From: Desulfosudis oleivorans
GTDB lineage: Bacteria; Desulfobacterota; Desulfobacteria; Desulfobacterales; SURF-7
Assembly: GCA_020723325.1 (NCBI GenBank)
Contig: DYJD01000003.1
Location: 167,822-231,821 of the forward strand
DNA length: 64,000 bases
Direction: 5' to 3'
The notes below the pieces were generated by a model, which saw only the letters and a program-made list of their open reading frames with translations, was not told the DNA's origin and made no database searches. A program made the translations under genes and the position numbers. Shown here piece after piece: positions 1 through 25,390 of this stretch (positions are counted from its first letter, which is position 1; each line of letters opens with the position of its first letter).

Positions 1-668
1 AATGCGGCTTCATTATAATGGTAAGCAGGCGCTATCAAATAAGCCGGCGGTGATGCGGAGTGAACCATGGCATTCAACCCGTTATACCAGTCAACGACAT
101 TGCGTTTTTCGGACAAGGGCCACAGCAGATCCAGAAACAAACCTGCCCTGGTTTTTAAATCCGGGATCTCCATCTTTTCCCGGAATTCCGCCCAGGTATA
201 AAAATGGGGTTCGAATTCATGCGGTTTCCGGTAAATCGGGTGGAGCAGATTCCGGTTGAACATCCACGGCTCGATATTGATCACCGCGAGCGATGCGGAT
301 TCCAGCAGGAAAGGATTTTCCCGGCAGAGGACCAGCGCCTCCCAGAAACTGCCGGAATCCATAGACAGGTTCAGGACACCGGCGGGATCGATATTTCCAA
401 GTTGCGCGAAAAAATCGGAATTGATGCAGGACACAAACCTGGAACTGCCCAGGAAAATGATTTTCGCTTGGCCGGTATGATGATTGCGAAGAAAGGATGA
501 AACCGGTGTTATCATGGAGCGGGGGGCGATGGTCTCCAGATAAACGCGGTTTTTCGAAATCAACAGGCCGATGCAGACCAGCAGGGCCAGGACTAAAAAG
601 AACACCCGGTTCGGCCTGGGAAATTCCGCAAGCGTATCAAAACTGAAAATAGATGAACGGCTGGACAT
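1..668 (-). CDS. hypothetical membrane-anchored protein, 3' end outside window (possible DltD/SGNH-like partner of the upstream MBOAT gene)
   Basis: Absent from the ORF track because it has no stop inside the window. My own minus-strand translation from ATG 668 (alt. GTG 605) reads MSSRSSIFSFDTLAEFPRPNRVFFLVLALLVCIGLLISKNRVYLE...AKIIFLGSSRF...INIEPWMFNRN... and stays open to position 1. It has one N-terminal hydrophobic helix and overlaps the MBOAT stop by 32 nt. Confidence 0.45.
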   Translation of the reverse strand, partial: MSSRSSIFSFDTLAEFPRPNRVFFLVLALLVCIGLLISKNRVYLETIAPRSMITPVSSFLRNHHTGQAKIIFLGSSRFVSCINSDFFAQLGNIDPAGVLNLSMDSGSFWEALVLCRENPFLLESASLAVINIEPWMFNRNLLHPIYRKPHEFEPHFYTWAEFREKMEIPDLKTRAGLFLDLLWPLSEKRNVVDWYNGLNAMVHSASPPAYLIAPAYHYNEAA

Positions 669-2064
669 AACTTTCCCCGATAAAGGATACTATCAGAATC
701 AATATGGTATAAGTCAGACTCTGCCAAACCCAGTGGGTGCTGCTTGTCACGAGCAATTCACGCTCAGCCAGATATTGTGGAAGATCAAGTAAAAAAGTGA
801 ACAGTAGATAAAAGATCGTCACATACAGCAAGGGCGAATTTGGATGTGCCCAATGGGCGGGATTGAATACCCTCAACAAATAAGTACTGGCAGTACGCAA
901 GTCCGGAGACCTGAAAAACACCCAAATGAAACTCGTAATATGAAAGGTGAAAAAAATGCTGATACCGGAAATGGCCGCCGAACTCCATTTCCGGCTGTTT
1001 TCCCGGATCACCATTTTTGTCGAGTCCTTGAATATCCTGTAAGCGGCAAGACAGGCTCCATGCAAGCCCCCCCAGATGACAAAGACCCAAGAGGCCCCAT
1101 GCCACAATCCCCCCAAAAGCATGGTGATCATCAGATTCCGGTACATGTTCCATTTTCCTTGCCGGTTTCCCCCCAGCGGGATATAAAGATAATCCCGCAG
1201 CCATTGGGACAACGAGATATGCCACCGCCGCCAGAACTCCACAATATTTTTAGAGAAATATGGTTGTCTGAAATTGATCACCAGGTCGATGCCCATCAAC
1301 TTGCTGACCCCCCGGGCAATATCGCTGTACCCGGAAAAATCGCCGTAAATCTGAATCGCAAAAAGATAGACGCCGCATAAGAGATCCAGACCCATCTGGC
1401 CGCCGCAGTTCTGGTATAGACTGTTGACAAACGGCGCCACCGCATCCGCGATGGCGATTTTTTTTTACAAAACCGATCAGGATCAGTTGAATACCGGCGC
1501 TGACATCCTCCCGCCTGACGATTCTTTTGGACTGTAACATGGGAAGAAGATGTCCGGCTCTTTCAATGGGACCTGCCAAGAGCAATGGGAAAAAACAGAT
1601 AAACAGCGCAAATGAAATGATATCTTTTATGGCTGTCTGCTTTCCCAGATAAACATCGATGATATAGGCCATGGCCTGAAAGGTATAGAAACTGATGCCT
1701 AAGGGCAGAATGATTTTCAAGGTGGAAGTCAGCGGAGAAAAACCCAGGATTTGGAAAACATCCGAAAGACTGTCGATGAAAAAATGATAATATTTGAAAA
1801 AACCCAGGAAGCCGAGATTGAGGATAATTCCAATGATCAGAAGCGTTTTCTTCTTATTCCCGGCGGCTGTCTGGATTCCAAAGGCAATGACATAGTTGAC
1901 CGTAGTGGCAATGACGATAAGCGATAGGAACCGGTAATCCCAGTACCCGTAAAAAAATAACTCGCAGCAATCAGGAAAATGTTCTGAAACCGTGTACTCA
2001 GCGAGTAATAGACCGGCAGCACAACAGCAAGAAACAAGATGAAAACCCAAGAATTGAACAACAT
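637..2064 (-). pseudogene. MBOAT-family membrane O-acyltransferase (AlgI/DltB-like), reading frame broken twice at homopolymer runs
   Basis: Three consecutive minus-strand ORFs (2064-1837, 2050-1250, 1440-637) together spell one MBOAT protein. N-terminus: MLFNSWVFILFLAVVLPVYY. Middle: YGYWDYRFLSLI...ISFYTFQAMAYIIDVY...LLAGPIERA. C-terminus: FWRRWHISLSQWLRDYLYIPLGGNR...LLGGLWHGASW. The frame switches map to the A7 run at 1951-1957 and the T9 run at 1458-1466 (plus-strand numbering). Confidence 0.8.
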
Positions 2065-2201
2065 CTAAAGGAGGTTCCCCGCGAAAAAATATTTTCTATA
2101 GTGTTAAGCGCTTGATGCCGCTTTTCAGTTGTGAAACGTTGAAGTTTACCAACAACCGCTTTAATATCGGCAAGTTTCATGTATGTCAACAACTGATGGA
2201 G

Positions 2202-2281
2202 GGCCGTGATCACCGTTGCGGCGGCCCTTCATTGTGGGAGCGGCTTCCAGCCGCGATAAGGCCGGAACAATAATCAAGGCC
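2202..2281 (+). repeat. family-2 intergenic palindromic element, copy 1 (core TGTGGGAGCGGCTTCCAGCCGCGAT flanked by imperfect ~21-nt inverted arms)
   Basis: ggccgtgatcaccgttgcggc...cattgtgggagcggcttccagccgcgataaggccggaacaataatcaaggcc. The core holds a GCGGC-TTCCA-GCCGC hairpin. The same element recurs at 28064, 59966 and 63326. Confidence 0.8.
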
Positions 2282-2290
2282 TGATGGTGT

Positions 2291-3676
2291 TTATCCGACA
2301 ACCTTGGAGCGTTCGATCTCGTTTTTCATTTGGCGCAGCCTTTTGGCCTTTACTACTACGGCTTCCAGTACTTGCTGGTGTTTGGGGGTTATCCAGGGGC
2401 CTTCGACTTCGATATCGGCATAGGGAAAGTCGCTTTTGGCCGAAAGGGTCTGCAAGATGGTCCGGGCCTGAATGGAGGGTTGGCAGTTGAATATGCTTAA
2501 ATGCACCAGGCCGTCAAAGCCGCCCGACTCTACAGAGCATAGAAAACGGCCGACGGTTTCGGTGGCTTCATGATACAGGACACAGGAAGTAAATTTATCC
2601 CCTGCTTTTAGAAGGTGGAGATGGGGAATATGTGCATCGTAACAAAGTCCGGATTTTTTGGCGATGTTTCGAAAATAGATGCTGAGTATGTCCGCCAGCA
2701 GGATGGTCACCCGGGAGACCACCGCCTCATAAGCATCCTTGAAGGGCCGCTTGGGGTTCAGGAACGAGCGCAACAGGGGCCAGATATTGAAGATGCTCAA
2801 GCGATTCCCCCCCAGTCTAAAGCCGAAACGGTTGACAAAGGCGGATTCCATATGCAGGACAAATTCACTCATGTTGACTACCTTGGGAATAATATCGTAC
2901 TGAAGGAAATAATCGATGGGCGGTTGATGGATCACCGCTGAGCTGCCGCTGCCGAAAATAAGTACCCTGGGTGTTTCCGCCACGTTTTTTTTCAGGGGGA
3001 TCCGGGCGACATTTTTTGCCCAGGCTGTTAACGCAAAAGGCAACACGATGAGGCCGCGGCGGGCTCTTTGGATGAACTTATCAGTCTCGGCCTTGAACGC
3101 GGGCATGGCTGTTTCCGCGTTTTCGGCAACCACTTTCAAACAGTTTTCCGCTTCTTCCAACAGGTCTCCCAGGATGATGGTGGTTAGAATCTGAATGCCG
3201 AAAAGGGTGCCCTGGCCCATGAAATTGTTATACAGGCTGGGATGACCCGGGAATACGGCGTTGCGCAATTTCAGGCGTCTGGCAAAAACTTCGCTGACCA
3301 GGGGCCAGGCGCCGCTTTGACAGGGGCCGCCCTCTTCCAAGCCGTAATACACGCTGATCTCATCCGGGCCGCGGTTTTCAACAATGTCTTTGTAGGTGCC
3401 GCCGATGATGGTATTGAAAGACAGGCATTCCCGGCCGGAGCAGAGTTTTTTGGCGTACTGCAGCACCTCTGAGTTCAATTTATGGGGCTGCATTCTGGTT
3501 TTCCATCCGCGTTTTTGTAAAAAGCTGTCGATCAATCCCATGGTGGGGGTGATGATGTTGTAGGGAAAGACATGGACCACCCGGGGATCGTTGAACTTCA
3601 CCCGCTTGCCGTCACAATCGATGATGTATTTATAATTCTTGCTTACCTGGGCCAGTTGAAAAGTTTCCGTGCTCAT
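2291..3676 (-). CDS. acyl-CoA dehydratase-related protein (2-hydroxyacyl-CoA dehydratase D-component-like half of the activase-associated module)
   Basis: 461-aa ORF whose ATG overlaps the stop of the upstream activase fusion (ATGA, 3673-3676). The sequence (…AKKLCSGRECLSFNTIIGGTYKDIV…, …GPCQSGAWP…) is of the kind found C-terminally fused to CoA-enzyme activases in Firmicutes. The family assignment is from memory, not from a search. Confidence 0.5.
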   Translation of the reverse strand: MSTETFQLAQVSKNYKYIIDCDGKRVKFNDPRVVHVFPYNIITPTMGLIDSFLQKRGWKTRMQPHKLNSEVLQYAKKLCSGRECLSFNTIIGGTYKDIVENRGPDEISVYYGLEEGGPCQSGAWPLVSEVFARRLKLRNAVFPGHPSLYNNFMGQGTLFGIQILTTIILGDLLEEAENCLKVVAENAETAMPAFKAETDKFIQRARRGLIVLPFALTAWAKNVARIPLKKNVAETPRVLIFGSGSSAVIHQPPIDYFLQYDIIPKVVNMSEFVLHMESAFVNRFGFRLGGNRLSIFNIWPLLRSFLNPKRPFKDAYEAVVSRVTILLADILSIYFRNIAKKSGLCYDAHIPHLHLLKAGDKFTSCVLYHEATETVGRFLCSVESGGFDGLVHLSIFNCQPSIQARTILQTLSAKSDFPYADIEVEGPWITPKHQQVLEAVVVKAKRLRQMKNEIERSKVVG

Positions 3677-6645
3677 GATGCGATTCTTTCTTCATAGGGT
3701 TTGGCTGTGTTGCGGTTTTGTTCGGCGATGATATCCAGGAAAGCGCCGATGCGGGTCTCAAAGCCGGCGTGGGCCGTGTGGGCATCGATTTCCAGATAGC
3801 AGAAGGTTTCTCCGGCAAGTTCCTCGCGGAATTGATGATACATGATGCCGTCCGGCACACAGGAAAAGCAGGACATCATGCACAGGTACAATCGGGGATA
3901 CTCCTTGATATAAGCCAAGGCGTTGGTGACCTGCTGGGTAAAATACCAAACATTTCTAGAGTGGGTTGTTCCATTGAGATTGCGCTGGGGCAGCATGTCC
4001 AGCGGAATGACGTTGTAACCCCGGCTGGTGATTTTGCGCGGCAAGGCCAGATTGGCTTCGGCCGAGCAGATGATGTAGGGTTTGGCCGCAATGACCACCG
4101 TGGGCTCATGGCGCATTTTGGCCAGCATGGCGCGGCCGAAGGCCTGGTAGCGCGTCTGAAAAATCCCGTAATATTCAAGGGCTTTTTGGGCGGCCCGAAT
4201 GCCTTCCTTGGTTTTTAACCCCAGCTTTTGGGCCAGGCGCCCGATTTCGTTGATCAGCCCCTTGATTTTGGCAGCGGAAAAGGCCATGTGGGGTGTGAGC
4301 AATTTAATGCTCAGGCCTTCAAAGGCATCGGCAAAGGCCTGACCGATGAGTTCCGGAACAATACCGGCATTGGCGCAGAAATAGCTGTTTTCAAAGGCGC
4401 TGGGATTGGCCCCGTCCAGAATGAAGGGCATGAATACGTGGTCCACACCACGCTGCAATAAGTCATACACGGCGCCATGGGCCATTTCACAGGGGTAGCA
4501 AATATCGCCGCCGGTCTTGAGATTGCCTGGCTTGGAAGGCTTGGACAACACCACATCATAACCCAATTCGGTGATCAGCCGGGCGTAAAACGGAAAAAAC
4601 TCGAAGGTGGACAAGACCATGGGTATGCCGATGGTGCCCCGGGGGTTTTTCACCGGTTCCGGCCCGAATTCTTCAAACATGATCTTGTTCCTGGCGGCGA
4701 TCATGTCCGTACCTTCAACCAGGTCGTCTTGGCGATGGCGGCTGAGCTCATATTTCGAGCACAACCCGCCGAAGGGATAGGTTTTTTCCCGGATGCTGAT
4801 GCGTTTGATTTCACATTTGTTTTCACAAGTTTTACAAGCGAAGGTGCCCTTGACTTCCATGGCGCCTTTTACCAGATTCTCCAGGCGATAATGGATTTCC
4901 GGCACATCCCCGTTCCGCAGCAGATCCCGTGTGAGCAGACCGTTGCCGATACAGCCCATGAGTTCCGGATGGCCGGGGACCACGATGCGGCGTCGGGTCA
5001 GGGCCGCCATGGCCAGGGCCACCGAGCGGTTCAACGCCACCCCGCCCTGAAAGAGCAGATTTTCGCCCACGGAGCGGGTGCCGACGATGCGGGAGATGTA
5101 GTTCATGGCAATGGAATAGACCAGGCCGGCCACCACATCCTCCGGTAGTGCCCCTTGTTGCAGCGCGTTTCTCAGGTCCGTATTGATGAAGGCCGCGCAA
5201 CGTTCGCCAAAGGAAATGGGTTCCCGGGCCGATTCTGCCGCGGCACTGATGGCGGTCACCGGAATACCCATATCCACGCTCACCGATTCTTCCAGGAAAC
5301 TGCCGGTTCCGGCTGAACAGCCCTCGTTCATGGCATAATCCACCGGCACGCCTTTTAAGAAAGAAATGAATTTGGAGTCCTGCCCGCCGATTTCAAAGAC
5401 CGTATCCACTTCCGGGACTTCCTCGGCCGCGGCCCGGCCGTGGGCCAATATCTCGTTGAAGCTTAAACAATTATCCAGATAAACCGAAACCAGTTCGCGG
5501 CCGGAACCGGTTACCGCCGCCTGGATGATCCGGATGGGCTGGTCACCCACCTGTTGGATCAATTCCTGCAAACATTTTTTGGTGGCCAAAACAGGATTGC
5601 CGTGGGTTCGTAAATAGCAACCGGCGCCGATGCCGCCTGCGGCCACATCAAACAATACCGCCTTGGTGGTGGTGGAGCCGGCATCCACGCCCAGAATATA
5701 GCGCCGGTTGCCTTCGATCCGCATTCGGTCACCGGGTTGCACGCGATAATCCAGCAGGGCCTCTGCTGTTGAAAGGGGCGGCAAAACATCAAAGGCGCTT
5801 CTGTGGATATTGAAACTGGTGCCTGCTTTCCGTCCGGCAGAGGGTTCGGCGTTTTCAGCAGCGTGCAGATAGGCGCCGAAGGCTTCCAGGCAATGGCTTT
5901 CATCCAAAATGATCAGCCTGGAATGGTTGAGCTGCCGGCTTAATATTTCCACAAAGGGTTCATTCAAGGTCAGCCCGCCGGCCAGGACAATGGTGTTCAG
6001 GGGCCAGCGCGCGAGTTCGAGCATTTTACAGATTTTTTGGCTCAAATCCACAATCAGGGATTTGGCGATGTCGGCCGGCGTGCATTCGCCTTTATTCAGC
6101 TTATGGGTGGCATCCGACTTGCAGTACACCGAGCAGCGCGCGGCCAGGGGAACAAGGTTGCCCTTTTTACTGGCCTCGATTCCTTCCGCAAGGGTAAAGT
6201 TCATGCGCTGGAGTTGCTGGACCACGAATTCACCGGTGCCGGCCGCGCATTTGGAAGAGGAAATGACATTCCTGATTTGTCCGTCTTTTACGGTGAGGAC
6301 GGTGAATGTTTCGCCCCCCAGGGACAAGACGATATCCGGTTTGAGATGATAATGGGCCAGGGCTTTTTCAATGCATTCGGTTTCCGGTATATACGGCAGG
6401 CTCAGCATGTTTTTGGCGGACTGGCCGGTGACCATGATCCGGGCCCCTTGGGCGGCAGCCAGCTCGCTGAAGATCTCCTGGAGCTTCTTTGAAGGATTGC
6501 CCTCGTGGCGGATGACTTGTTTTTCCAGGGTTGCATGGCCGCCGCCCCGGACGCGCTTGACCGATACGGCGCCGATTTCAATGCCTTCATACCAGGCCGC
6601 GCTGTTTTCATTCTTGATGAGCGTTACGTTATTCATTTTAATCAA
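3673..6645 (-). CDS. CoA-substrate-specific enzyme activase fusion: two BcrA/BadF/HgdC-type ATPase domains plus C-terminal activase-associated (DUF2229-like) domain
   Basis: 990 aa. The second ATPase domain has a canonical YILGVDAGSTTTKAV phosphate loop. Both domains carry the cluster-ligand motifs of HgdC-type activators: SKCAAGTGEF + ARCSVYC, and EGCSAGTGSF + ERCAAF. The C-terminal part begins TFACKTCENKCEIKRI and contains IGIPMVLSTFEFFPFYARLITELGYDVVLS and GGDICYPCEMAHG. The start is TTG 6645 or ATG 6636, only 26-35 nt after the PKS stop. Confidence 0.8.
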   Translation of the reverse strand: MIKMNNVTLIKNENSAAWYEGIEIGAVSVKRVRGGGHATLEKQVIRHEGNPSKKLQEIFSELAAAQGARIMVTGQSAKNMLSLPYIPETECIEKALAHYHLKPDIVLSLGGETFTVLTVKDGQIRNVISSSKCAAGTGEFVVQQLQRMNFTLAEGIEASKKGNLVPLAARCSVYCKSDATHKLNKGECTPADIAKSLIVDLSQKICKMLELARWPLNTIVLAGGLTLNEPFVEILSRQLNHSRLIILDESHCLEAFGAYLHAAENAEPSAGRKAGTSFNIHRSAFDVLPPLSTAEALLDYRVQPGDRMRIEGNRRYILGVDAGSTTTKAVLFDVAAGGIGAGCYLRTHGNPVLATKKCLQELIQQVGDQPIRIIQAAVTGSGRELVSVYLDNCLSFNEILAHGRAAAEEVPEVDTVFEIGGQDSKFISFLKGVPVDYAMNEGCSAGTGSFLEESVSVDMGIPVTAISAAAESAREPISFGERCAAFINTDLRNALQQGALPEDVVAGLVYSIAMNYISRIVGTRSVGENLLFQGGVALNRSVALAMAALTRRRIVVPGHPELMGCIGNGLLTRDLLRNGDVPEIHYRLENLVKGAMEVKGTFACKTCENKCEIKRISIREKTYPFGGLCSKYELSRHRQDDLVEGTDMIAARNKIMFEEFGPEPVKNPRGTIGIPMVLSTFEFFPFYARLITELGYDVVLSKPSKPGNLKTGGDICYPCEMAHGAVYDLLQRGVDHVFMPFILDGANPSAFENSYFCANAGIVPELIGQAFADAFEGLSIKLLTPHMAFSAAKIKGLINEIGRLAQKLGLKTKEGIRAAQKALEYYGIFQTRYQAFGRAMLAKMRHEPTVVIAAKPYIICSAEANLALPRKITSRGYNVIPLDMLPQRNLNGTTHSRNVWYFTQQVTNALAYIKEYPRLYLCMMSCFSCVPDGIMYHQFREELAGETFCYLEIDAHTAHAGFETRIGAFLDIIAEQNRNTAKPYEERIAS
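3691..4848 (-). other. activase-associated C-terminal domain (DUF2229-like)
   Basis: aa ~600-985. Contains a C-x2-C-x3-C motif (CKTCENKC) followed by conserved IGIP...FFPFY...LGY.VVLS...CYPC blocks. Confidence 0.55.
4921..5700 (-). other. activase ATPase domain 2 (BcrAD/BadFG-like, canonical)
   Basis: aa ~316-575, with LGVDAGSTTTKAVLFD, EIGGQDSKFI, NEGCSAGTGSFLE, GERCAAFINTD and LFQGGVALN. Confidence 0.75.
5860..6588 (-). other. activase ATPase domain 1 (BcrAD/BadFG-like, degenerate phosphate-1 motif)
   Basis: aa ~20-262. GIEIGAVSVK replaces the usual G-x-D-x-G-S-T-x-x-K. The Cys motifs SKCAAGTGEF and ARCSVYCKSD are retained. Confidence 0.6.
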
Positions 6646-6671
6646 CCGTCTTTATGAGTTTCAATTGCATA

Positions 6672-9600
6672 TTATTTCCCCATGGAAGCAAGCCGGGGAA
6701 TCCATTTGCCATCCAACGCCGCTGATATTTTTTGCGAGACAGACCCCGGCCGCGGCCGGCCCGGCAGTTTTCCCCTGGTCGTCATTTTCTTGATGTATTC
6801 GTACTTCATCTTGTTCACCAATTTTTCTTTGGGCGTGTTCTTCTGGATATAATTCACGGCCAGGCAATATTTCATATAGGTTTCCATCAAGGCTTGATTG
6901 ATGCGCGGGCAACGGATGCCCGCCTGCTCAAGGATTGCGGCTGTATAGGTGGCGTCGGCATAGGTGCTTTCATTATGGGGCATCATGGCCGGATTGAATT
7001 GCAGCAGATCCGCGGTCAGGGAATCATATTTGCGGATGTAATCCAGGGAGGCTTTGAATTCGTCAATTTCCAGATAGTTCAACCCGAAACCGCAACCTGC
7101 CAGCAGGTCCATGATTTCCTTGAATGTTTTAGGATGGGGATTATTCAAATGATAGGTCGCGAACACGGTTTTTAATTGGGTGGAAAGGTACACCAGGCTC
7201 TGCCCCACATAGTCGCTGGGGGCGATATCAAAAAATTGGATGGCATTGACGGCGATCTGGTTTTTTACCACGGTTTTAAAAATGTCATAAAAGATCCCTG
7301 GTACTTGGGATTTGCCCAGGGGATAGGTTCCCAGGCGGCTGTCCCCCATGATATTGCCGGGCCTGGCGATGATCCAGCGTAGACCGTGGCCGTGGGCCAG
7401 GCGCACCAGCTTTTCGGCTTCGTATTTGGAACGCGCATAACCGAGATTCTCAAAGCCCTGGCCCACCTGGAAATCCTTTTCCGTATAGGGCCTGGATGCC
7501 GTGAACTGCCGGTCCCCCATGACCACATAGGAGGAAACAAAGACAAAATAGCGTTGGGCGGTGTTTAAGCAGAAATCGATCATGTGCCGGGTGCCGTCCA
7601 CATTGACGACTTTCAACTCCCGGTAGTTCCCGTGCAAGCTGGTTTTGGCGGCACTGTGGATCACCATGTCAACGGATTGAGCCAATTGATGGTATTCCTT
7701 TGCGCTCATTTTCAGATCCGGCTGGATCACGTCACCGACAACCGGGATCACCCGTTGTTCAAACTGTTCGCTCAGCCGCTGGTTCGGGCTATAGATCTGC
7801 AACATCGCGCGGATGCGTTTTTTAGCGTGTTCACGATCCTGGGCTCTGACCAGGCAATAAATCGTGCTATCCGTGTTTTCCAGGAAATCCTTTACCAGCC
7901 TCCCGCCCAGCACACCCGTGGCCCCGGTCAGAAGAATCCGCCGGGTTTGCAGTTCCTTGGCCTGGTGAACAGCGGGAGGGAACAGGTCCGCCTGGTTTGC
8001 TAAAGTGATGGGAATTTCCGGTTGCTCCAAGAATCCGAATTTGTCAGCGGCCGGGTGATCATCATCCGAATCAGCACTCCTTGTTGCGGAATCCGGCTTG
8101 TTTGGCGGGGATGCTTTTTGGGCATCGATGCGCCGGGCCAGCTCCTCCATGCTGGAAGTTTGGATGGATTCGAGGGCCAGCTTGATTCCAAAGGCTTTTT
8201 CAATTTCATTGGCCAGGCGCATGCTGGTGATGGAATCCAAACCATAATCCGCCAAGGCCGTGTCCAAACGGAGGCTGGCTTTATTGATCTTTAACAGGCT
8301 GGAAACTTTTTCCACCAGCAGTGGAACTGTCCGTGATTCAGCCCAAGCGGTTTTCTCAAACCGGATTTCCGGTTGGCGGGCAGGCACGGTTTTGGGAACC
8401 GGCTCCATTCGACTTGGGGCCTGGTCAATGCTTTCAACAGTTATCCAGCAGCGCTCCTTGGCAAAGGGGTAGGCCGGGGCGGAAATCCGGCGCGGCCGCA
8501 GGCCCGGATACAGCAAGTGCCAGTTGATATCCAGGCCGGAAACCCATAGTTTGGCCAGTTTTTGAAATTTTTTGCTGTGGATGATGCTATTGAGAAAGGA
8601 AAGGCCCTCTTCACCATCCAGCAGAAGATCCAGGTCGGTTCCTACACCGCCGTCGCTGTTGATCCAAACCTGCTCAATGTTATGCTCCCCCAGGCAATAG
8701 GCATTCAGCTTGCCGGCCAGATCATCCCAGCCGGAGACGAGCAGGGCGAGTCTTGCCGGCATGGCTTCGCGGCCCACTTGGAAAGTATAGCAAAAATTCG
8801 TCAGGGTTAAGCCTGCGGGCATTATCATGTGAGTTGCAGAGGCAGTCACCCCTTGGGCGGTTTGTTTCATCAAACCATGGTCTTTGAAGAAGTCCAGGAT
8901 GGTTTCCGCATAAGCTTTCAGCCGCTCGGAATTCCTGGCCGAAAGCACGAAGATCCAGGTGCCCAAGGCCGGGTCGGCCTGCTGGACATCATCCCCGGTT
9001 TCAAATTCCTCCACGATCAGGTGGGAATTGGAGCCGCCGGCACCAAAGGAGCTGATGCCCGCGCGCCGGGGGCCGGCGGCATTTTGGCCGTTTTGGGAAA
9101 TCAGCGGCTTTTTCCAGTCCGATAGTTCCGCCTGAAGGTGGAAGGGCGAATTTTTAAAATCGATAAGGGGGTTGACGATCTCGGCATGGAGGGAAGGAAC
9201 CAGTTTTTTGTGCTTCATCTGCAGGATGACTTTGGTCAAGGCCGCCATGCCGGCCGCGGATTCCAGGTGGCCGATATTGGATTTAACCGAGCCGATGGAA
9301 CAATAGCGCTGCCGGCGGCCATCACTATCCTGGGACGGCATGCCTTGTTCAAAGGCGCTGATCAAACCGGCGATTTCGATGGGGTCGCCCAGCGCTGTTC
9401 CGGTGCCGTGGGCTTCCAGGCAACTGATGGTGCGCGGGTCGACATTGGCGCGCTTGAAGGCGTTCAGGATCACCCGGCTTTGGGCCTTGGGATTGGGCAC
9501 TGTGTATCCATTGGTTCTGCCGCCGTGGTTCACGGCGGTGCCTTTGATCACGGCCTGGATGTTGTCGCCGTCGGCTATGGCCCGGCCAAGGGGTTTCAGC

Positions 9601-17993: not shown

Positions 17994-18224
17994 TCAAACA
18001 TGGAATGGGTAGGGACTACCACAAGATCTTGCTATGTTTTGAAACAGCAACAACAAAACATAATGCTTCAAAACAGAGCGACATTCCTGTATAAATGCTG
18101 CCGCACTGCTGATTTTAGATTAAAATAGTGCTATATAGCAGAAAAAACAAATGAATTTAAAAATATGAAATCCCCTGGGATGGCTTGTATTGAAATAGGG
18201 ATGGAGAGTCAATATGAAAAAGTG

Positions 18225-18252
18225 TTTCATGAAAATTTCTGTTTTAACATGA
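18225..18252. promoter_or_regulatory. candidate operator, site B: TTTCATGAAA-a-TTTCTGT-tttaa-CATGA, ~230 nt upstream of the PKS start
   Basis: Contains the perfect 10-bp palindrome TTTCATGAAA plus TTTCTGT plus a second CATGA half-site. The same composite motif is found at 20576-20603. Confidence 0.4.
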
Positions 18253-18332
18253 AATATAAATGCATTTTAAAACAGAGGTAATGCTCAGATAACTAGTCCG
18301 CAGGCTGAAGGATAGAATATTCACCTGGGCAG

Positions 18333-20570
18333 TTACAGATGCATGGCCCCATGATCAATATGATGGGTAAATAACAAGTAGCGCTCTGCTTGGACTCGTT
18401 CCCCTTGGGTATAGGGGCGCGAGCCGTCCAGATGTGACACGCAGCGTTCTATTTTCGCCAAGGAGTCGGAAAGCTGCCGGATGAACACATCCAGCGATGA
18501 CATTTCGCCATGAAACCGTGTGAAAGAGTAAATGTAGAGTTTGTCCTTTTGGTTTTTTTTCGCGATCTCAATCGCTTTTTCTAGAATTTTAACAGTATGT
18601 CTGCCGGTAGCCGCGGAGCGGATGGGATAAAAATCCCAAAGAACGGCTGCGAAGCAAAAATAAATCGTCGGCCGGTAGGTGTCCAAGGCCACGGCATTGT
18701 CATGGGTTTGAAATGCTTTTAAAAGGGCCAGATCCAGTTCTGGAAGTTGTTCTTCAACCGGGGCGGTTTCCCGCAGCCAGCCCATGGCATACAACATGTC
18801 CAGGGCCGGCTTTCTGGCAATCTCGATGGGAATGCCGATGGGCTTTTCAGGGTTGACACAAATATCCTGGTCATAGGCCAGGATGCGCTTCAGAATGCGG
18901 ACGCAAATCAGTAAATAAACCGAACGCGTGCCCCGGGGAGAGACGGACATGCCTTTTTCAAACAGATCCTCGGCCGCATTCAGGAAGTCAAACACGCTGG
19001 AAGGGTCTATGTGAATATCAAAATCCACTGGTTTGCCGTGCTGCTTGCGGATAAAGCGCAGGTTGGTGATGGCCTGGGTCAGTCGCAACACTGCAAACTC
19101 AACATAAAAATCCTCGTCCAGGGCCTTGCAGTTGGACAGGATGAAGGCCGCCTCCTTTTCAGCGCGCCGGAAATGGGCCGCGGCCACCGAATAGGCGATT
19201 GCGTTTGAGCCCAGGTCCCGATAAATCACCATGCGCAGGGAGCGGGCGCTCAAATTGGTCGGATTGGTGCTTAGAACAATGCGCAGTATTTCCAAGGCTT
19301 CCCAAAGTTTGTTGCGGAAGTAAAGTGTTTTGGAAATTTCAACCCCCAGCAGCGTGTTTTGCGGGGAACGCATCAGGGCTGTGACGGCATTGGTATGATT
19401 TTGATATTCGATTTTCGACCGGGAGCAATAGGCGCTGTCTAAAAGGGTTCGTAAAAGATCGGAGTTTGAAACCGCCTCGTCTTTTAACAGGCCGGGAATG
19501 AACGGCCAATAGATGGAACTCCACAGCCCGACAATCCACCAGATGCTTAGCAATTCGCCGTTGAACAAGGAAATTTCTTTGGGTTTGTTGTTGAAAATGG
19601 CGCGGATATCATTGATTAAAAGGCATTGCCTGGCAAAATCGGTAACCCGGATGACCGGATCGCCTGGAAGTCTCGCACTTAAAAGGGGTTGAAGATAATT
19701 ATCAAGGGTGGTGAAATTGCCGGCGGCGATGCCGATGGATAAAAAACGCTTGGGGCTGGCAAAGGGCGAAAGGGCCCATCTGACCGCCATTTGATGCCCC
19801 ACGGAAGTGGCGTTGCGGATGCCTTGCTGATAGCAAGACAGGTCATGGATGCCCTCCTCTTTTGGAAAATCAACATACAGGGTGGTGATATCATAGACCC
19901 TTACCGCTCCCCATTGTCCGCCGGGCGCCACGGTCAGGCCTTCCTTGATAAACTGTTTTAAATCCTTTTTCAGCCAGATAATAATATCTTGTTCAATGAT
20001 GTCCCCCCGGCTGATCAGGGAAAGGCCGATGCGTACGCCGTCTTTGGCGCTGACCGGGCGGTCGCTTTTATGGCAGATTTTCATTAGGGCCGCGTAATTC
20101 CAGCCCAGATTCAATTCGCTGCGCTCATACCCAAGCCAAAAGGCTAAGCTGCGCAGGACGTTCTGCTTGTGCAGGGTGTCGGCCGGCTCTTGCTTGATGC
20201 GGGTCAGCATGGTGTTGCTGATTTTGGGCAGGGCGATATCGAATTTATCCAGCAGGGCATTGATGCGGGCCACCAGGCCGCGACCGGACAAGCCGGTTTG
20301 CAGAAAATCCTCCTTGTTGTCCAGCAGGGCCTCCATGGTGATATTCCGGGGCAGGTCTGGATTGGATCTGTGCTCAACGTTGTTTTCAAGCCAATCCTGA
20401 AATGAGTCCCTGGTGTTGTCTGAAATGATCCCTATGTTTGCGGCAAAGGCGATCAAGGATTCCAGGACCCGATCAGCACCTTCACCGGTTAAAAATTCTT
20501 CATATTCCTGCATTGTCGGAAAAATCGCGAGAATTGCCGACATGGCTTTGATTTTCAAAGTGACCTCCAT
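18333..20570 (-). CDS. large orphan protein with putative XRE-like helix-turn-helix (candidate cluster regulator)
   Basis: 745-aa ORF directly upstream of the PKS and in the same orientation. Residues ~95-148 (…LPKISNTMLTRIKQEPADTLHKQNVLRSLAFWLGYE) fit the XRE/Cro HTH pattern. The remaining ~600 aa are helical with no motif I recognise. No obvious SD precedes the first ATG. Confidence 0.45.
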   Translation of the reverse strand: MEVTLKIKAMSAILAIFPTMQEYEEFLTGEGADRVLESLIAFAANIGIISDNTRDSFQDWLENNVEHRSNPDLPRNITMEALLDNKEDFLQTGLSGRGLVARINALLDKFDIALPKISNTMLTRIKQEPADTLHKQNVLRSLAFWLGYERSELNLGWNYAALMKICHKSDRPVSAKDGVRIGLSLISRGDIIEQDIIIWLKKDLKQFIKEGLTVAPGGQWGAVRVYDITTLYVDFPKEEGIHDLSCYQQGIRNATSVGHQMAVRWALSPFASPKRFLSIGIAAGNFTTLDNYLQPLLSARLPGDPVIRVTDFARQCLLINDIRAIFNNKPKEISLFNGELLSIWWIVGLWSSIYWPFIPGLLKDEAVSNSDLLRTLLDSAYCSRSKIEYQNHTNAVTALMRSPQNTLLGVEISKTLYFRNKLWEALEILRIVLSTNPTNLSARSLRMVIYRDLGSNAIAYSVAAAHFRRAEKEAAFILSNCKALDEDFYVEFAVLRLTQAITNLRFIRKQHGKPVDFDIHIDPSSVFDFLNAAEDLFEKGMSVSPRGTRSVYLLICVRILKRILAYDQDICVNPEKPIGIPIEIARKPALDMLYAMGWLRETAPVEEQLPELDLALLKAFQTHDNAVALDTYRPTIYFCFAAVLWDFYPIRSAATGRHTVKILEKAIEIAKKNQKDKLYIYSFTRFHGEMSSLDVFIRQLSDSLAKIERCVSHLDGSRPYTQGERVQAERYLLFTHHIDHGAMHL

Positions 20571-20575
20571 TTGGA

Positions 20576-20603
20576 TTTCATGAAACGTTTCTGTGTTTCA
20601 TGA
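20576..20603. promoter_or_regulatory. candidate operator, site A: TTTCATGAAA-cg-TTTCTGT-g-TTTCATGA, in the divergent region between the 745-aa gene and the ADH gene
   Basis: Contains the perfect palindrome TTTCATGAAA (20576-20585). TCATGAAAC (20578-20586) and GTTTCATGA (20595-20603) form a 9-bp inverted repeat with an 8-nt spacer. Confidence 0.4.
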
Positions 20604-20721
20604 TAAAACAGATATTTCACGAAAACACATAAAATATTTGACATGATTCATGATACACCATAGTAGCCTTAGACAAAAAAATCAAACTGAATTTTTCGAA
20701 AAAACCCCAGGAGAAGCGATT

Positions 20722-21897
20722 ATGTTACCGGAATTTTATCAGTTTCAATTATCGACAAAAGTGTTGTACGGGCCGGGCCTGGCCCTGGATTTTTCCCATG
20801 AACTGCACGAACTTGGGGCAAGCAGATATTTTCTGATTTCGGATCAGGTCATCCAGGCCTGCGGGCTTGTGGATGGGATTGCCGAGCGCTTGCAGGAAGA
20901 AGGTTTTACGATTACCGGCAAGTATTTGGATGTTCCCCAGGATGCCTCGGTGACTTGTGTGGAAGCCATTGCCGCCCAGGCAAGTCAAACCGGGGCCCAA
21001 GGGCTATTGGCCGTGGGCGGGGGCAGTGTCATCGATGCAGCCAAAGCCGCCAACTTTATCTTTACCAATGGCGGGAGCTTGATCGCGGATTACTCCGGAG
21101 CCGCCACCCTTGCAAAACGCCTCAAACCGCTGGTGGTCATTCCCACCACGGCCGGAACCGGCAGTGAATGCACCTTGGCGGCCGTCATCTATGACCAGGA
21201 GAACAATACTAAACTATCCTTTTCGGACAAATTCCTGTTGCCGGATCTGGCCGTGCTGGACCCGCAAATGACGGTTACCATGCCGTCGCTATTGACCGCT
21301 GCGACCGGCATGGACGCCCTGACCCATGCGGTTGAGGCCTATGTGGGGGTCGACGCCTCGCCCCATTCCCAAGCCCTGGGACAGCTTGCCATTGCATATA
21401 TCACCCGCAATATCGCCCAGGCCGTGGAAAACGGCGGCGACTTGACGGCCCGGGGCGCCATGCTGATCGGGGCCAATCTGGCCGGAATCTCTTTCTCCCA
21501 CTCCATGGTCGGCTGTGTTCATTCCATGGCCCATGCGGTGGGTGCTGTTGCCCGGGTACCCCACGGCATTGCCAATGCCATACTGCTGCCCCATGGGATG
21601 GCCTACAATCTGGAGGAATGCCAAGAAGCCTATGCCGGCCTGGCGCCGCTTTTTGGAGCTGATGCCAATGGCCGCCATGCCGGTGATGCGGCCCGGATGG
21701 CCATTGAAAGCGTGAAAAAACTCACAGCCGAACTGAACCGGATTTGTGCCCTTCCCATCCGGCTGAGGGATGCCGGCGTAGAAAAAGACATGCTGCCCCT
21801 GATCGCCCGCAAAGCGGAAGAAGACGGCACGGCCATCTACAACCCAAGGCCGGTAACGGCGGAAGAGATCATGGTTCCATTGCAAAATGCATTCTGA
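20722..21897 (+). CDS. iron-containing (group III) alcohol dehydrogenase
   Basis: Motifs are GGGSVIDAAKA, PTTAGTGSE and the His-rich metal site HSMVGCVHSMAHAVG. I prefer ATG 20722 (MLPEFYQF…) because AGGAGA lies 8 nt upstream; the ORF track begins at 20650. Confidence 0.85.
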   Translation: MLPEFYQFQLSTKVLYGPGLALDFSHELHELGASRYFLISDQVIQACGLVDGIAERLQEEGFTITGKYLDVPQDASVTCVEAIAAQASQTGAQGLLAVGGGSVIDAAKAANFIFTNGGSLIADYSGAATLAKRLKPLVVIPTTAGTGSECTLAAVIYDQENNTKLSFSDKFLLPDLAVLDPQMTVTMPSLLTAATGMDALTHAVEAYVGVDASPHSQALGQLAIAYITRNIAQAVENGGDLTARGAMLIGANLAGISFSHSMVGCVHSMAHAVGAVARVPHGIANAILLPHGMAYNLEECQEAYAGLAPLFGADANGRHAGDAARMAIESVKKLTAELNRICALPIRLRDAGVEKDMLPLIARKAEEDGTAIYNPRPVTAEEIMVPLQNAF

Positions 21898-21922
21898 AAA
21901 CCAAAAAAGAAAGGAAGTCAAA

Positions 21923-22336
21923 ATGGGATTATTTGCCAATAGTGAAGATTTTGAAAAGGTGATTGTCGGTTTTTTCAACCTGGTGGCCGAGACCCCGGAG
22001 GTCGCGGATAAACTGCTGGCCTCCAAACTGGTGATCCGCTTCAATTATCATGATCCGGAAGTGGTGGTGGTGGTGGACTGCTCCCAGGAAAAAATCCAGG
22101 TACGGTCAGGCGACAAAGAGGCCCAAGCCATTGTGGAAATGAGCATGAGCGCGGATATCGCGCACAAGTTCTGGTTCGGCAAGGTCAACTTGACCATGGC
22201 CCTGGCCAGGCGGCAGATGATCGCCAAAGGTCCGGTGCCGAAAATATTAAAACTGCTGCCGGCCATCCGGCCGACCTATACCATGTATCCGCGGTATCTG
22301 GATACAAGCGGGCACAGCAACTACAATGTTCATTAA
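21923..22336 (+). CDS. SCP2 (sterol/lipid carrier protein-2-like) domain protein
   Basis: MGLFANSEDFEKVIVGFFN...VIRFNYHDPEVVVVVDC...FWFGKVNLTMALARRQMIAKG has the typical SCP2 fold signature. GAAAGGAAG lies upstream of ATG 21923. Confidence 0.7.
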   Translation: MGLFANSEDFEKVIVGFFNLVAETPEVADKLLASKLVIRFNYHDPEVVVVVDCSQEKIQVRSGDKEAQAIVEMSMSADIAHKFWFGKVNLTMALARRQMIAKGPVPKILKLLPAIRPTYTMYPRYLDTSGHSNYNVH

Positions 22337-22352
22337 ACAAGGAGGGCAATTC

Positions 22353-24230
22353 ATGGGCGGCTACGCCGGACAATTTCTGCAAATCGATTTAACCGCAGGG
22401 ACAATCACCAAGCTCCCACTTGATAAAGCATTTGCGCGCAATCATATCGGCGGGCTCGGTTTCAGTGCCGAACTGTTTTTAGAGCATATAAAAAACAAGC
22501 CGCATTTTGATGCCTATGCCCCGGAAAATCCGTTTATTGTCATGACCGGGCCGCTTACCGGGATTCCCCTGAACGGCGCGGCACGCTGGACCGTCTGCGC
22601 CAAGTCGCCCTTAACCGGATTCTGGGGGGATGCCAATGTCGGCGGTTATTTCGGCGCGGAGCTGAAATGCGCGGGCTATGACGGCATGATTATTACCGGC
22701 GCAGCCCCCAGCCCGGTTTATATTTACATCCATGATGAACTCGTGGAACTCCGTGATGCCTCTCAATATTGGGGCCTGGACACCTATACTGTAAATGATC
22801 GGCTGCTTGCCGATCTGGGTGTTGACGCCAAACATCAAGGCCATACCCTGAGCATCGGTCCAGCCGGTGAAGGTCTGGTCCGATTCGCGGCTTTGATTCA
22901 CAATAAAGGGCATGCTGCCGGACGAACCGGCCTGGGTGCGGTTTGGGGCAGCAAAAAGCTGAAGGCGATCTATGTTTGCGGCAGCGGCAAAGTCAAACCC
23001 GCGCATCCTGCCCGGTTGAAGCAGTTGCGTGGCGAGCTTAAGGACCTATACGCCGAAAGCATCGGGATCGCCGCCATGCGCGCCACCGGCACCGTAACCC
23101 ATATGGACGTGGGCATCATCAGCGGCGATATTCCCATTAAAAACTGGAATCAAACCGATTGGGATCAAATCAACGAACTGGGGCCGGCGGCGATTGAAGA
23201 AAAAATCCATGCCGGTCACCGTACTTGCTTCGGCTGCGGCGTGGCCTGCAAGAAAGACGCGCGGGTCCCCGGCGGTCCTTTTAAGATGGAGAAAGGCCCG
23301 GCGCCGGAGTATGAAACCGTGGCAGTCTTTGGCACCATGTGTCTGAACCCGAGCATTGAATCCGTTGCCAAAGCCAATGAGATCTGCAATCGCATGGGCA
23401 TGGATACCATTTCCTGCGGTGCCACCATCGCCTTTGCCATCGAGTGCTTTGAACATGGCTTGATCCGTGCCGCCGATACCGATGGTTTGCAACTGGCCTG
23501 GGGAAACTCGGAAGCCATCATTGCACTTACGGAAAAAATCGGAAAAAAGGAGGGGATAGGCGCTGTTTTGGCCGAAGGGAGTGCCCGGGCCGCCGCCCAT
23601 TTCGGCGGGCAGGCCGCCGATTTTCTGACCACGGTCAAAGGATTGGAGGCTCCCATGCATGATCCGCGCAACGCCCATGGCTTTGGCTTGGCCTACGGGG
23701 TTTCCCCCCGCGGGGCCTGTCATGAAGCCAGCCTGACTTTTGAAGTGGAAGGCGGCACTTTTTATTTGCCGGATCTGCCTGGTCTTACGGCGGAACTTCC
23801 ACCCGGCAGCCAGGACCGGGCCCAACTCAATGTTGTGTGCCAGGACTACGGCATGGTTTTCTCCCATTGCGCTGTTTTCTGCAATCTGGGCGGAATGCCC
23901 CTGACCGCCACCCGGACAGTGGAAATTCTCAATTGCGTGACAGGCTTTGATTACACATTGGAAGAACTCCTTGCCATAGGACGAAGACTGTGGTTGCTCA
24001 AACGCGGTATCACCGGTTTGTTCGGCGCCCGCCGAAAAGACGACCAATTACCGAAAAAACTCATGCAACCGCTACCGGAGGGTCCCACTGCCGGAAGCAC
24101 TCCGGACATGGAACTGATGCTGGCCGAGTTCTATAAGATCAGAGGCCTGACCGAAGACGGTGTTCCAACCCCAGTCACCCTGGCGGCCAACCGGTTGGAA
24201 CAGTTGGCTGAACTTTTCAAACAGGCATGA
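22353..24230 (+). CDS. aor: aldehyde:ferredoxin oxidoreductase (tungsten/molybdopterin AOR family)
   Basis: N-terminus GGYAGQFLQIDLTAGTI…, with the AOR domain-1 pattern, CFGCGVACK and other FeS/pterin-region Cys. AAGGAGGG lies 6 nt before ATG 22353. Confidence 0.9.
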   Translation: MGGYAGQFLQIDLTAGTITKLPLDKAFARNHIGGLGFSAELFLEHIKNKPHFDAYAPENPFIVMTGPLTGIPLNGAARWTVCAKSPLTGFWGDANVGGYFGAELKCAGYDGMIITGAAPSPVYIYIHDELVELRDASQYWGLDTYTVNDRLLADLGVDAKHQGHTLSIGPAGEGLVRFAALIHNKGHAAGRTGLGAVWGSKKLKAIYVCGSGKVKPAHPARLKQLRGELKDLYAESIGIAAMRATGTVTHMDVGIISGDIPIKNWNQTDWDQINELGPAAIEEKIHAGHRTCFGCGVACKKDARVPGGPFKMEKGPAPEYETVAVFGTMCLNPSIESVAKANEICNRMGMDTISCGATIAFAIECFEHGLIRAADTDGLQLAWGNSEAIIALTEKIGKKEGIGAVLAEGSARAAAHFGGQAADFLTTVKGLEAPMHDPRNAHGFGLAYGVSPRGACHEASLTFEVEGGTFYLPDLPGLTAELPPGSQDRAQLNVVCQDYGMVFSHCAVFCNLGGMPLTATRTVEILNCVTGFDYTLEELLAIGRRLWLLKRGITGLFGARRKDDQLPKKLMQPLPEGPTAGSTPDMELMLAEFYKIRGLTEDGVPTPVTLAANRLEQLAELFKQA

Positions 24231-24544: not shown

Positions 24545-24751
24545 ATGCAAACAGTAACCGTATCACCAAAATACCAAATCGTTATACCCAAAATGATCAG
24601 GGATGCACTGAATCTTCGTCCAGGCCAAAAAATGCAGGTAATAGAATATAATGGACGTGTCGAGCTTATACCGGAGCGCGATATCAAAGAACTTCGTGGA
24701 TTCTTAAAAGGCATCAATACGGAATTCAAGCGGGAAAAAGATAGGGTATGA
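24545..24751 (+). CDS. vapB: AbrB/SpoVT-family antitoxin (VapB-type)
   Basis: 68 aa. MQTVTVSPKYQIVIPKMIRDALNLRPGQKMQV matches the AbrB swapped-hairpin motif. There is a 4-nt ATGA overlap with the downstream PIN gene. Confidence 0.85.
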   Translation: MQTVTVSPKYQIVIPKMIRDALNLRPGQKMQVIEYNGRVELIPERDIKELRGFLKGINTEFKREKDRV

Positions 24752-25122: not shown

Positions 25123-25158
25123 AATGTGCATAGGGGAGCATCAGCCATAATGGTGTAA

Positions 25159-25390
25159 TCGTCACAAGGCGCAGCGGCCCAACAGATCGCGGGCCATAAA
25201 TCCCTGATCGCAGACGTGACCGAAACCCATGACTTGTCCAAAAAACGCTATGAGAAAGGCCTGGACAGCTACCTGAGTGTCCTGGATTCCTATCGCTCCC
25301 TCTGCGCGGCCAAACAGGCCCTGGTAGGGTTGCGACTATCGCGACTGGCAAGCCAGATCAGGCTTTATGCGGTATTGGGCAGGGGAGTGG
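25159..25390 (+). pseudogene. 3' remnant (~75 codons) of an RND-efflux outer-membrane-factor gene (NodT/TolC family)
   Basis: The frame is open from 25159 and reads …AAAQQIAGHKSLIADVTETHDLSKKRYEKGLDSYLSVLDSYRSLCAAKQALVGLRLSRLASQIRLYAVLGRG. This is the conserved C-terminal helix pattern (RY.xG..sYL.VLdaqRsL…LY.ALGGGW). The preceding ~400 codons are missing. Confidence 0.75.

Follow-up and report, generated by a model that had tools for sequence, protein, structure and literature searches.

A predicted operator-promoter apparently joins an alcohol/aldehyde oxidation operon and a polyketide synthase operon in Desulfosudis oleivorans

The window analyzed here is a 64-kb stretch of Desulfosudis oleivorans DNA (contig DYJD01000003.1); the interval studied within it extends from position 637, in a minus-strand gene, to the end, at 24230, of a divergent plus-strand gene for an aldehyde:ferredoxin oxidoreductase (AOR). 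Two units make up most of this interval. Unit A comprises the gene for a 745-aa putative regulator or sensor and the genes for an iron alcohol dehydrogenase (Fe-ADH), an SCP2-like protein, and the AOR; unit B comprises a polyketide synthase (PKS), a 990-aa activase fusion, and a 461-aa protein, together with a promoter copy. From gene content, synteny statistics, fold assignments, and a shared cis-element, all obtained directly in this analysis, we consider it rather probable that the interval consists of two operons which were not inherited together, but which are apparently wired to one regulator. The features of the two units are listed below.

Unit A, 18333-24230
18333-20570, minus strand: 745-aa putative regulator or sensor (family alignment, AlphaFold2 [AF2] model, Foldseek)
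20591-20666, plus strand: operator-promoter that serves the ADH-SCP2-AOR operon, between the divergent genes (nhmmer)
20650-21897, plus strand: open reading frame (ORF) of the Fe-ADH; likely start at 20722 behind an AGGAG site, giving 391 aa
21923-22336, plus strand: SCP2-fold lipid-carrier-like protein, 137 aa (Pfam SCP2, 28.5 bits against a cutoff of 21.3, E 2e-6)
22353-24230, plus strand: tungsten-type AOR (AFOR_N, E 1e-69; AFOR_C, E 1e-109)
Unit B, 2291-18254, minus strand
18208-18254, minus strand: second operator-promoter copy, directed toward the PKS, with two GTTT-N7-AAAC-type boxes ending at a TTGAC -35 element
6672-17993, minus strand: PKS, 3773 aa, with Pfam domains in the order acyltransferase (AT), FAAL, acyl carrier protein (ACP), ketosynthase (KS), dehydratase, ketoreductase, ACP, KS, ACP, terminal thioester reductase (R)
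3673-6645, minus strand: 990-aa activase fusion (two BcrAD_BadFG domains, E 1.6e-43; DUF2229, E 1.8e-41)
2291-3676, minus strand: 461-aa catalytic subunit with a BCR/HAD/DCCP fold, PlsR/"Red2"-like (AF2 pLDDT 91.1, Foldseek)

The order of the minus-strand genes, from the 745-aa gene through the PKS and activase to the 461-aa gene, had been proposed in an earlier, sequence-only reading of the window and is upheld here. The same is true of the tight packing of the plus-strand trio, whose genes are separated by exactly 25 and 16 nt, with a ribosome-binding site in each gap. On the minus strand, 26 nt separate the PKS gene from the activase gene, which in turn shares 4 nt with the 461-aa gene. The Fe-ADH is matched over its full length by PF00465 (E 1e-43) and PF25137 (ADH_Fe_C; E 7e-49); it reached no NCBIfam equivalog cutoff that would assign its substrate. 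The AOR is collinear with the Pyrococcus furiosus enzyme (PDB 1aor, residues 3 to 590, E 4e-109).

The 745-aa protein had been described in the sequence-only reading as an orphan helix-turn-helix (HTH) protein. It is no orphan: a homologue search returned more than 200 relatives of about 740 aa, and the 214 that were scored, nearly all of them 736 to 762 aa in length, are 35 to 66% identical to it. Named relatives come from Desulfobacterales, Syntrophales, Smithellaceae, and similar metagenome-assembled genomes, mostly Desulfobacterota, and the family aligns end to end with a mean column identity of 58%. The AF2 model (pLDDT 83.6) comprises an N-terminal helical region, an α/β domain at approximately residues 177 to 350, and C-terminal TPR-like helical repeats. 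A search with Foldseek gave weak matches (E 2.5e-3 or worse) of the α/β domain to the class III nucleotidyl cyclases CyaB (3r5g) and Rv1625c, and of the repeats to TPR proteins; on the strength of the model, the α/β domain is a putative degenerate class III cyclase-like domain. No HTH family of Pfam or NCBIfam, relaxed E values included, matched the full protein, a query limited to its first 200 residues, or any of the 26 homologues scanned, and a profile of residues 70 to 170 gave a best E value of 0.43 against PDB sequences. The HTH is thus a putative one, with an Xre-like pattern at approximately residues 95 to 150 as its sole sequence basis. Indirect support for an HTH and a DNA-binding role, which we take as presumptive, comes from a conserved operator that adjoins the genes of this family.

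We examined which genes accompany the 745-aa family at 80 metagenomic loci, brought to 83 by exact-protein look-ups and reduced to 65 by dereplication. Upstream counts refer to the 46 dereplicated loci with at least 3 kb of upstream sequence and to genes within 6 kb of the regulator; downstream counts refer to the 36 loci with at least 3 kb on that side. A gene with an Fe-ADH domain lies upstream at 29 of the 46 loci, and one with an aldehyde dehydrogenase (ALDH) domain, mostly as part of a fused AdhE, at 22. An AOR is found there at 11 loci, an acyl-CoA synthetase at 12, and an SCP2-like gene also at 12; one or another of the enzyme classes (Fe-ADH/AdhE, AOR, ALDH, or acyl-CoA synthetase) is present at 36 of the 46. 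The gene immediately upstream of the regulator is divergently oriented at 55 loci. KS, R domain, activase, and 461-aa homologues were found at none of the 36 loci with sufficient downstream sequence, and nowhere at any of the 83.

The closest relatives of the 745-aa protein likewise have no PKS nearby. Two of them, each 66% identical to it, have a gene for an MFS transporter downstream; at one (L090) the divergent gene encodes an Fe-ADH, and at the other (L092) it is cut by the contig end. A third (L093, 63% identical) is divergent from a lipase and its chaperone (378-2355), a pairing that hints at a regulon for ester, alcohol, or lipid catabolism. At a fourth (L005, 61% identical), the divergent genes encode an ADH and an SCP2 protein that are 71% and 75% identical to those of the window, followed by an ALDH-family gene in the position where the AOR would be. 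The window ADH is also 63% identical to the ADH of L007, which again stands beside a family regulator, and the SCP2 orthologues of L005 and L033 score 29.3 and 34.7 bits, respectively, against Pfam SCP2. In sister loci the AOR is swapped for an NAD-type ALDH or a fused AdhE, often with an acyl-CoA synthetase after it, and this exchange points to an ancestral role for unit A in an alcohol-to-aldehyde-to-acid (to acyl-CoA) funnel, not in polyketide tailoring. The regulator and ADH-SCP2-AOR genes form a self-contained module, widespread in Desulfobacterota, in which the aldehyde-oxidizing enzyme is interchangeable.

Since this synteny holds without a PKS, the trio did not come down with the PKS as a set of enzymes dedicated to tailoring. 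The sequence-only reading had asked whether the trio stays beside the PKS in other genomes, and the family loci, with no KS at any of them, answer in the negative. They also bear on a rival explanation, namely, that the interval is one biosynthetic cluster in which the trio tailors the hydrophobic aldehyde released by the R domain and the 745-aa protein is a cluster-specific regulator. We regard this as quite unlikely, even though the two units adjoin and have an operator-promoter in common and the R domain looks functional. The regulator and ADH/SCP2/AOR-type genes occur in dozens of PKS-free lineages, the window ADH and SCP2 proteins are orthologous to those encoded at PKS-free loci, and the substitution of ALDH or AdhE plus acyl-CoA synthetase for the AOR is typical of catabolism.

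The common operator-promoter came to light as a 22-nt block, TTTCATGNTAAAACAGANATTT, which occurs at 18233-18254 on the minus strand and at 20596-20617 on the plus strand, with all 20 specified positions matching, and nowhere else in the window. The operator of the family is about 60 bp long and consists of GTTTyA-N-TAAAAC, TTTTCATGAAAC, approximately 9 nt, and TTGACA; it is also found between regulator and ADH genes elsewhere, in other genomes, and its boxes are two GTTT-N7-AAAC-type inverted repeats that abut the TTGACA -35 element. A first nhmmer model was derived from eight regulator-ADH intergenic regions. By nhmmer, a site lies directly upstream of the regulator gene, directed toward the divergent gene, at 48 of 71 eligible loci, and displaced copies are found directly before AdhE or acyl-CoA synthetase genes at four loci (L050, L053, L056, and L077). 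To avoid circularity, a hidden Markov model (HMM) was built from 34 unique promoters of other genomes only; its matches in the window were as follows.

20591-20648, plus strand, toward the ADH: 31.6 bits, E 8e-9
18254-18208, minus strand, toward the PKS: 28.3 bits, E 8e-8
Next best match in the 64 kb, with no target gene: 6.9 bits, E 0.39

The copy upstream of the PKS, a predicted operator, retains both boxes, the distance between them, and a correctly oriented -35 element. Its second box, TTTTCATGAAACAC, is closer to the family consensus than that of the ADH copy; it is therefore not merely a recent duplicate, which argues for maintained function. A third exact TTTCATGAAA palindrome is present at 39507-39516, outside the interval, where the full operator model gave no significant match.

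Independent regulation of the PKS and the trio, the finding that the sequence-only reading would have taken as contrary to a link between them, is argued against by the restriction of the HMM matches to these two sites. The same sites count against the explanation that there is no functional link at all. On this account, a mobile or horizontally acquired PKS cassette came to lie behind the regulator by chance, the operator-like sequence in front of the PKS is a relic or fortuitous, and the two operons work independently. The arrangement is indeed unique to this lineage, the block is surrounded by REP-like repeats, a toxin-antitoxin pair, and an IS200-like transposase, and gene pairs like the activase and 461-aa genes occur in many unrelated contexts. 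We nevertheless think it unlikely, because the PKS site scores 28.3 bits with a model built from other genomes while the remainder of the window, the ADH site apart, does not exceed 6.9 bits, and because boxes, spacing, and a correctly oriented -35 element are all kept; a further contig, described below, joins the same cassette independently to genes of the regulon type. Unit B stands directly behind the regulator gene and has its own operator copy, so both operons are predicted to be co-induced. With a conserved promoter-operator in each, the two units are probably switched on together, yet they are not one inherited cluster; rather, in this genome the regulon appears to have taken in the PKS operon. 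What looks like a single cluster is then a catabolic module of common occurrence beside a biosynthetic cassette that is rare, the two being joined by a concrete cis-element.

Both KS domains of the PKS contain DTACSSS (residues 1169 and 2724) and HGTGT (residues 1307 and 2862) motifs (ketoacyl-synt, E 2e-181) and are followed by RhiE-like and CurL-like linkers. The only Acyl_transf_1 match covers residues 12 to 273, before the FAAL, so that the modules have no embedded AT and are of the trans-AT style; the AT itself is about 50% identical to trans-AT PKS acyltransferases. The C-terminal, SDR-type R domain (NAD_binding_4, E 3e-56, residues 3355 to 3597) contains the motifs TGATGVLGG and YARSK (Y-x-x-x-K), from which it appears to be functional. 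A library protein of 3751 aa (P0362) is identical to the window PKS. When residues 1251 to 2150 were compared with genome contigs, only two distant PKSs, from Paenibacillus and Streptomyces, were recovered (31 to 32% identical), which is uninformative. A search with the N-terminal 1000 aa yielded no orthologue, the best matches being FAAL-ACP proteins of at most 37% identity and AT domains, and in an exhaustive representative library nothing other than the window's own PKS was collinear with residues 23 to 1000 (AT-FAAL).

The activase exceeds the cutoff of TIGR00241 (195 bits against 125.4), and its residues 316 to 575 resemble the activator of 2-hydroxyisocaproyl-CoA dehydratase (PDB 4eht, E 3e-28), as well as MbdQ, HgdC, and DCCP-R. 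The 461-aa protein gave no Pfam, NCBIfam, or PDB sequence match; at E values up to 5, just a spurious match to DUF6677 was seen. The label dehydratase-like given to it in the sequence-only reading nonetheless holds at the level of the fold. The top 19 Foldseek matches of its AF2 model in the PDB are all DCCP, BzdNO, MbdON, or 2-hydroxyisocaproyl-CoA dehydratase (E 7e-6 to 2.4e-3), with a sharp drop thereafter. In an alignment of 40 sequences, Cys84, Cys119, and Cys398 do not vary at all and Cys79 hardly varies; these residues could be ligands of an iron-sulfur cluster. Homologues of the 461-aa protein occur in Desulfobacterota and Asgard archaea, and the closest, 70 to 72% identical, are on two contigs (L085 and L086), where each is preceded by an activase of 71% and a PKS of 53 to 58% identity. 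With two orthologous contigs, and no other collinear AT-FAAL protein, the PKS-activase-461-aa cassette appears to be conserved but rare.

These two contigs lack the window trio, and what they carry instead is informative. In L086 the cassette is followed by a gene for a 176-aa protein and two Fe-ADH genes, and in L085 by the same small gene before the contig ends. The 176-aa protein (49% identity) and the first ADH (33%) of L086 are the best matches of a divergent operon at L079 that encodes a 176-aa protein and an ADH, stands beside a family regulator, and has its own operator match. With an Fe-ADH in the window and in L086, and the 176-aa gene in L085, all three known cassettes therefore adjoin genes of the regulon type. 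The Fe-ADH genes in the L086 operon could be cited for a single biosynthetic cluster, but the ADHs of the orthologous cassettes are different ones, and there is neither an AOR nor a Pfam-detectable SCP2 with them. The trio-PKS link proposed in the sequence-only reading is thus partly supported, by the shared operator-promoter and the L086 Fe-ADHs; the idea of a dedicated set fails, the trio being widespread without a PKS. The small protein, 176 to 183 aa in length (L085:11674-12225, L086:7892-8422, and L079:1548-2078), has a hydrophobic N terminus and no Pfam match, and there is no copy of it in the window. We considered whether the proteins of L085 and L086 might be SCP2-like and rejected this, given the lack of a Pfam match and an hhalign probability below 1%.

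Distant homologues of the 461-aa protein, 43 to 46% identical, are found in other contexts. The Ger-like pair stands alone behind a TetR gene in L096, with acyl-CoA dehydrogenases in L087, and with radical-SAM and FAD/CCG proteins in L088 and L089. The same two genes occur in a member of the Promethearchaeota (L095:5052-9395; GCA_048939995.1), with 58% identity for the activase and 36% for a 464-aa protein; that pair has an AOR 3 kb away and also, at less than 5 kb, a gene for a B12-radical SAM protein, and further Asgard matches are P0296 to P0348. A Logan contig (L094:1-11825; SRR34261158_3795) encodes a 6172-aa megasynthase that ends in ACP-R, its R domain being 48% identical to that of the window. 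The genes that follow encode a radical SAM/SPASM protein, a 2-oxoacid_dh-type acyltransferase, a BBD activase, a ferredoxin, and a 452-aa homologue, and after these an esterase, a GDSL lipase, and a 4HBT thioesterase. An ACP-R synthase thus accompanies a Ger-like pair in four instances (the window, L085, L086, and, with its 6172-aa synthase, L094). Of the partners of the R domain, the Ger-like radical enzyme is more conserved than the ADH.

Several findings weigh against two operons under one regulator. The operator upstream of the PKS is predicted, no DNA-binding domain is detectable in the 745-aa protein, such that another factor may bind the operator, and the close relative L005 has no significant operator match. 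Identity to the window ADH is just 29% and 40% for the two ADHs of L086. The known PKS cassettes number three, and the PKS promoter region is covered in the window alone. The Ger-like pair is also found alone or in non-PKS contexts (L087, L088/L089, L095, and L096), and the two units are adjacent in one genome, where chance is a possible cause. Taking these together with the operator matches, we regard a functional ADH-PKS link and co-regulation as plausible.

We infer the following course of metabolites and the following role for the radical enzyme. The Fe-ADH would interconvert alcohol and aldehyde, the SCP2 protein would carry the hydrophobic substrate, and the AOR would interconvert aldehyde and acid with ferredoxin. 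The PKS would load a fatty acid through its FAAL, extend it with two malonate units, reducing and dehydrating after the first round and leaving a β-keto group after the second, and release the product by reduction, as an aldehyde. Together, the 990-aa and 461-aa proteins, whose genes are translationally coupled, would constitute a low-potential radical enzyme like PlsA/PlsR-Ger/DCCP, driven by ATP and supplied with electrons by ferredoxin, which would act on the PKS product or its ester. Most likely the ADH/AOR module would have been co-opted for redox handling of an aldehyde or alcohol entering or leaving the PKS. In one version the trio would supply the starter by converting an alcohol to an acid for loading by the FAAL, which parallels the acyl-CoA synthetases of the sister regulons; in another it would handle the aldehyde from the R domain instead. 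Ferredoxin reduced by the AOR may additionally feed the activator domains.

HgdC-type activators take electrons from ferredoxin or flavodoxin, and AOR reduces ferredoxin. On a further rival model, the main role of the trio toward the PKS cassette would be energetic, AOR-reduced ferredoxin being the donor to the HgdC-type domains of the 990-aa protein. The ferredoxin gene between the activase and 452-aa genes in L094 fits such a role, as does the AOR located 3 kb from the Asgard pair. As the main role of the trio, however, we think it very improbable: there is no ferredoxin gene among the interval genes examined, L085, L086, and L096 have no AOR nearby, and any cellular ferredoxin pool would do. 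As an additional contribution, feeding of the activase by the AOR may occur and is compatible with the data; electron supply and the two-operon reading are not exclusive and can both hold.

The activase has the BBD architecture, two PF01869 domains and PF09989, that together with a second reductase part characterizes PlsA/PlsR and Ger, and Ger homologues have been reported in Deltaproteobacteria and Asgard archaea (PMC12838417, PMC13159169). PlsA/PlsR of C. perfringens (CPE1194/1195) and Ger of T. maritima (Tmari_0479) and D. alkenivorans (SHJ90043) share with the 990-aa fusion the same BBD part of about 1000 aa. The second part, a reductase/dehydratase of about 400 to 460 aa, is encoded by a separate gene in the window, as in plsA-plsR, and the BCR/HAD fold and a distribution among anaerobes, including Deltaproteobacteria and Asgard archaea, are further points of likeness. 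The window pair differs in that the 461-aa protein has no match to Pfam HGD-D (PF06050), so that the similarity is at the fold level only, and in that the pairs of the window, L085, L086, and L094 are co-operonic with an ACP-R megasynthase; its substrate, moreover, may not be a glycerolipid ester. Membership in the PlsA/PlsR-Ger group is thus partly established, by the fit of architecture and fold in the face of a missing HGD-D signal.

DCCP/DCCP-R, the 2-hydroxyacyl-CoA dehydratases, and BzdNOPQ/MbdONPQ provide the best structural matches of the 461-aa model (6eno, 7yyl, 8s02, 3o3m, and 9g87), and the best sequence matches of the activator domains are from the same superfamily (4eht, 9gai, 1hux, and 7yyl_E). 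The conserved cysteines of the 461-aa protein, possible iron-sulfur ligands, may be another likeness to DCCP, the dehydratases, and class I benzoyl-CoA reductases, although identity to the DCCP/dehydratase structures is only about 10 to 12%, with TM scores of 0.4 to 0.47. Unlike in the DCCP-R and HgdC systems, the window activators are fused in tandem to the catalytic half, and there is no sign of a CoA-thioester substrate. A parallel to the PKS is the myxobacterial ElbD, a multidomain acyl-activating enzyme with ACP and reductase domains that provides a fatty aldehyde for ether-lipid formation (PMC9131029). Acyl activation, ACP, and reductase are shared with the window PKS, whereas ElbD has no KS modules, has an AGPAT-like acyltransferase, and belongs to an aerobic pathway without a BCR/HAD-type enzyme. 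The alcohol-oxidation sets of anaerobes, with Fe-ADH or AdhE and AOR, have the same Fe-ADH beside a tungsten-type AOR, and the exchange of ALDH, AdhE, and acyl-CoA synthetase in sister loci is in keeping with them; in the window, by comparison, an SCP2 gene lies between ADH and AOR, and there is a ~740-aa protein and a defined operator.

A literature search returned no account in which a PKS accompanies an enzyme of the 2-hydroxyacyl-CoA-dehydratase type or of the Ger type, no description of ADH-SCP2-AOR with a ~740-aa protein and operator, and none of ADH-SCP2-AOR in Desulfo* organisms. The putative cyclase-like and TPR regulators of about 740 aa make up a large uncharacterized family with an operator and with AdhE, Fe-ADH, AOR, SCP2, and acyl-CoA synthetase as predicted targets, which could explain the control of alcohol and aldehyde metabolism in many Desulfobacterota. 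We also put forward, tentatively and as a minor possibility, that an ACP-R megasynthase with an ATP-driven radical reductase like PlsA/PlsR-Ger represents an undescribed biosynthetic logic, and that in this genome the pathway has come under an alcohol/aldehyde-responsive regulator of a widespread, hitherto unrecognized Desulfobacterota family. Ketyl-radical chemistry on the PKS aldehyde or an ester of it would then lead to reductive deoxygenation or to a (vinyl) ether, a new class of anaerobe lipid, and ADH/AOR redox chemistry and polyketide-lipid synthesis would be switched on together. If this were true, the pairing of an R-domain megasynthase with Ger/PlsAR would extend ATP-driven ketyl-radical chemistry to polyketide and ether-lipid natural products of anaerobes.

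The features on either side of the two units are as follows.

3-668, minus strand: partial ORF, cut by the window start; its ATG (668-666) overlaps the MBOAT stop
637-2064, minus strand: MBOAT/DltB-like O-acyltransferase gene with two frameshifts (Pfam MBOAT, E 1.3e-20)
2196-2281: GC-rich hairpin, arms 2196-2206 and 2222-2232, and REP-like dispersed repeat, 2226-2281 (inverted-repeat search)
24545-25122, plus strand: MazE-type antitoxin and PIN toxin (24748-25122), directly after the AOR
25509-26099, plus strand: IS200-like Y1 transposase

The hairpin at 2196-2232 is real, as the sequence-only reading had it, but the palindromic repeat is not specific to the cluster: the REP-like element occurs at least three more times in the window (28064-28143, 59965-59990, and 63349-63380). 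The region at 2196-2281 is likely the end of the PKS operon. Judging from gene-length arithmetic, an independent Logan contig apparently stops close to the first REP-like copy. An Rfam scan of the window gave no match.

Beyond this element, the MBOAT gene is broken, as had been noted, at homopolymer runs near 1957-1963 and at 1458-1466. As these are a T7 run and an A9/T9 run, respectively, the frameshifts could reflect assembly error or slipped-strand phase variation and not decay. Its two ORFs score 126.8 and 33.1 bits against NCBIfam DltB, for which the cutoff is 375 bits. The partial ORF at 3-668, previously called DltD-like, has no Pfam match at E values up to 1 and is absent downstream of the L085 and L086 cassettes. 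A DltB/DltD D-alanylation pair was considered and rejected, given the subthreshold DltB scores, the frameshifted gene, and a partner with neither a DltD nor any other Pfam match. Both genes lie beyond the REP-like element and are absent from L085 and L086, and they are therefore treated as unrelated neighbors.

On the other side, the zone after the AOR (24545-26099) is a mobile-element-rich right-hand boundary of the ADH operon. It includes a short ORF (25216-25488) that a precomputed record lists as an OEP fragment, unconfirmed, our own Pfam scan giving no match. Just past the Y1 transposase lies a second, different long inverted repeat (26238-26341), with arms GGTGGGCGCAGCCCACCCTACA and TGTAGGGTGGGCTATGCCCACC, which could be of the REP/RAYT type or the end of an insertion sequence.

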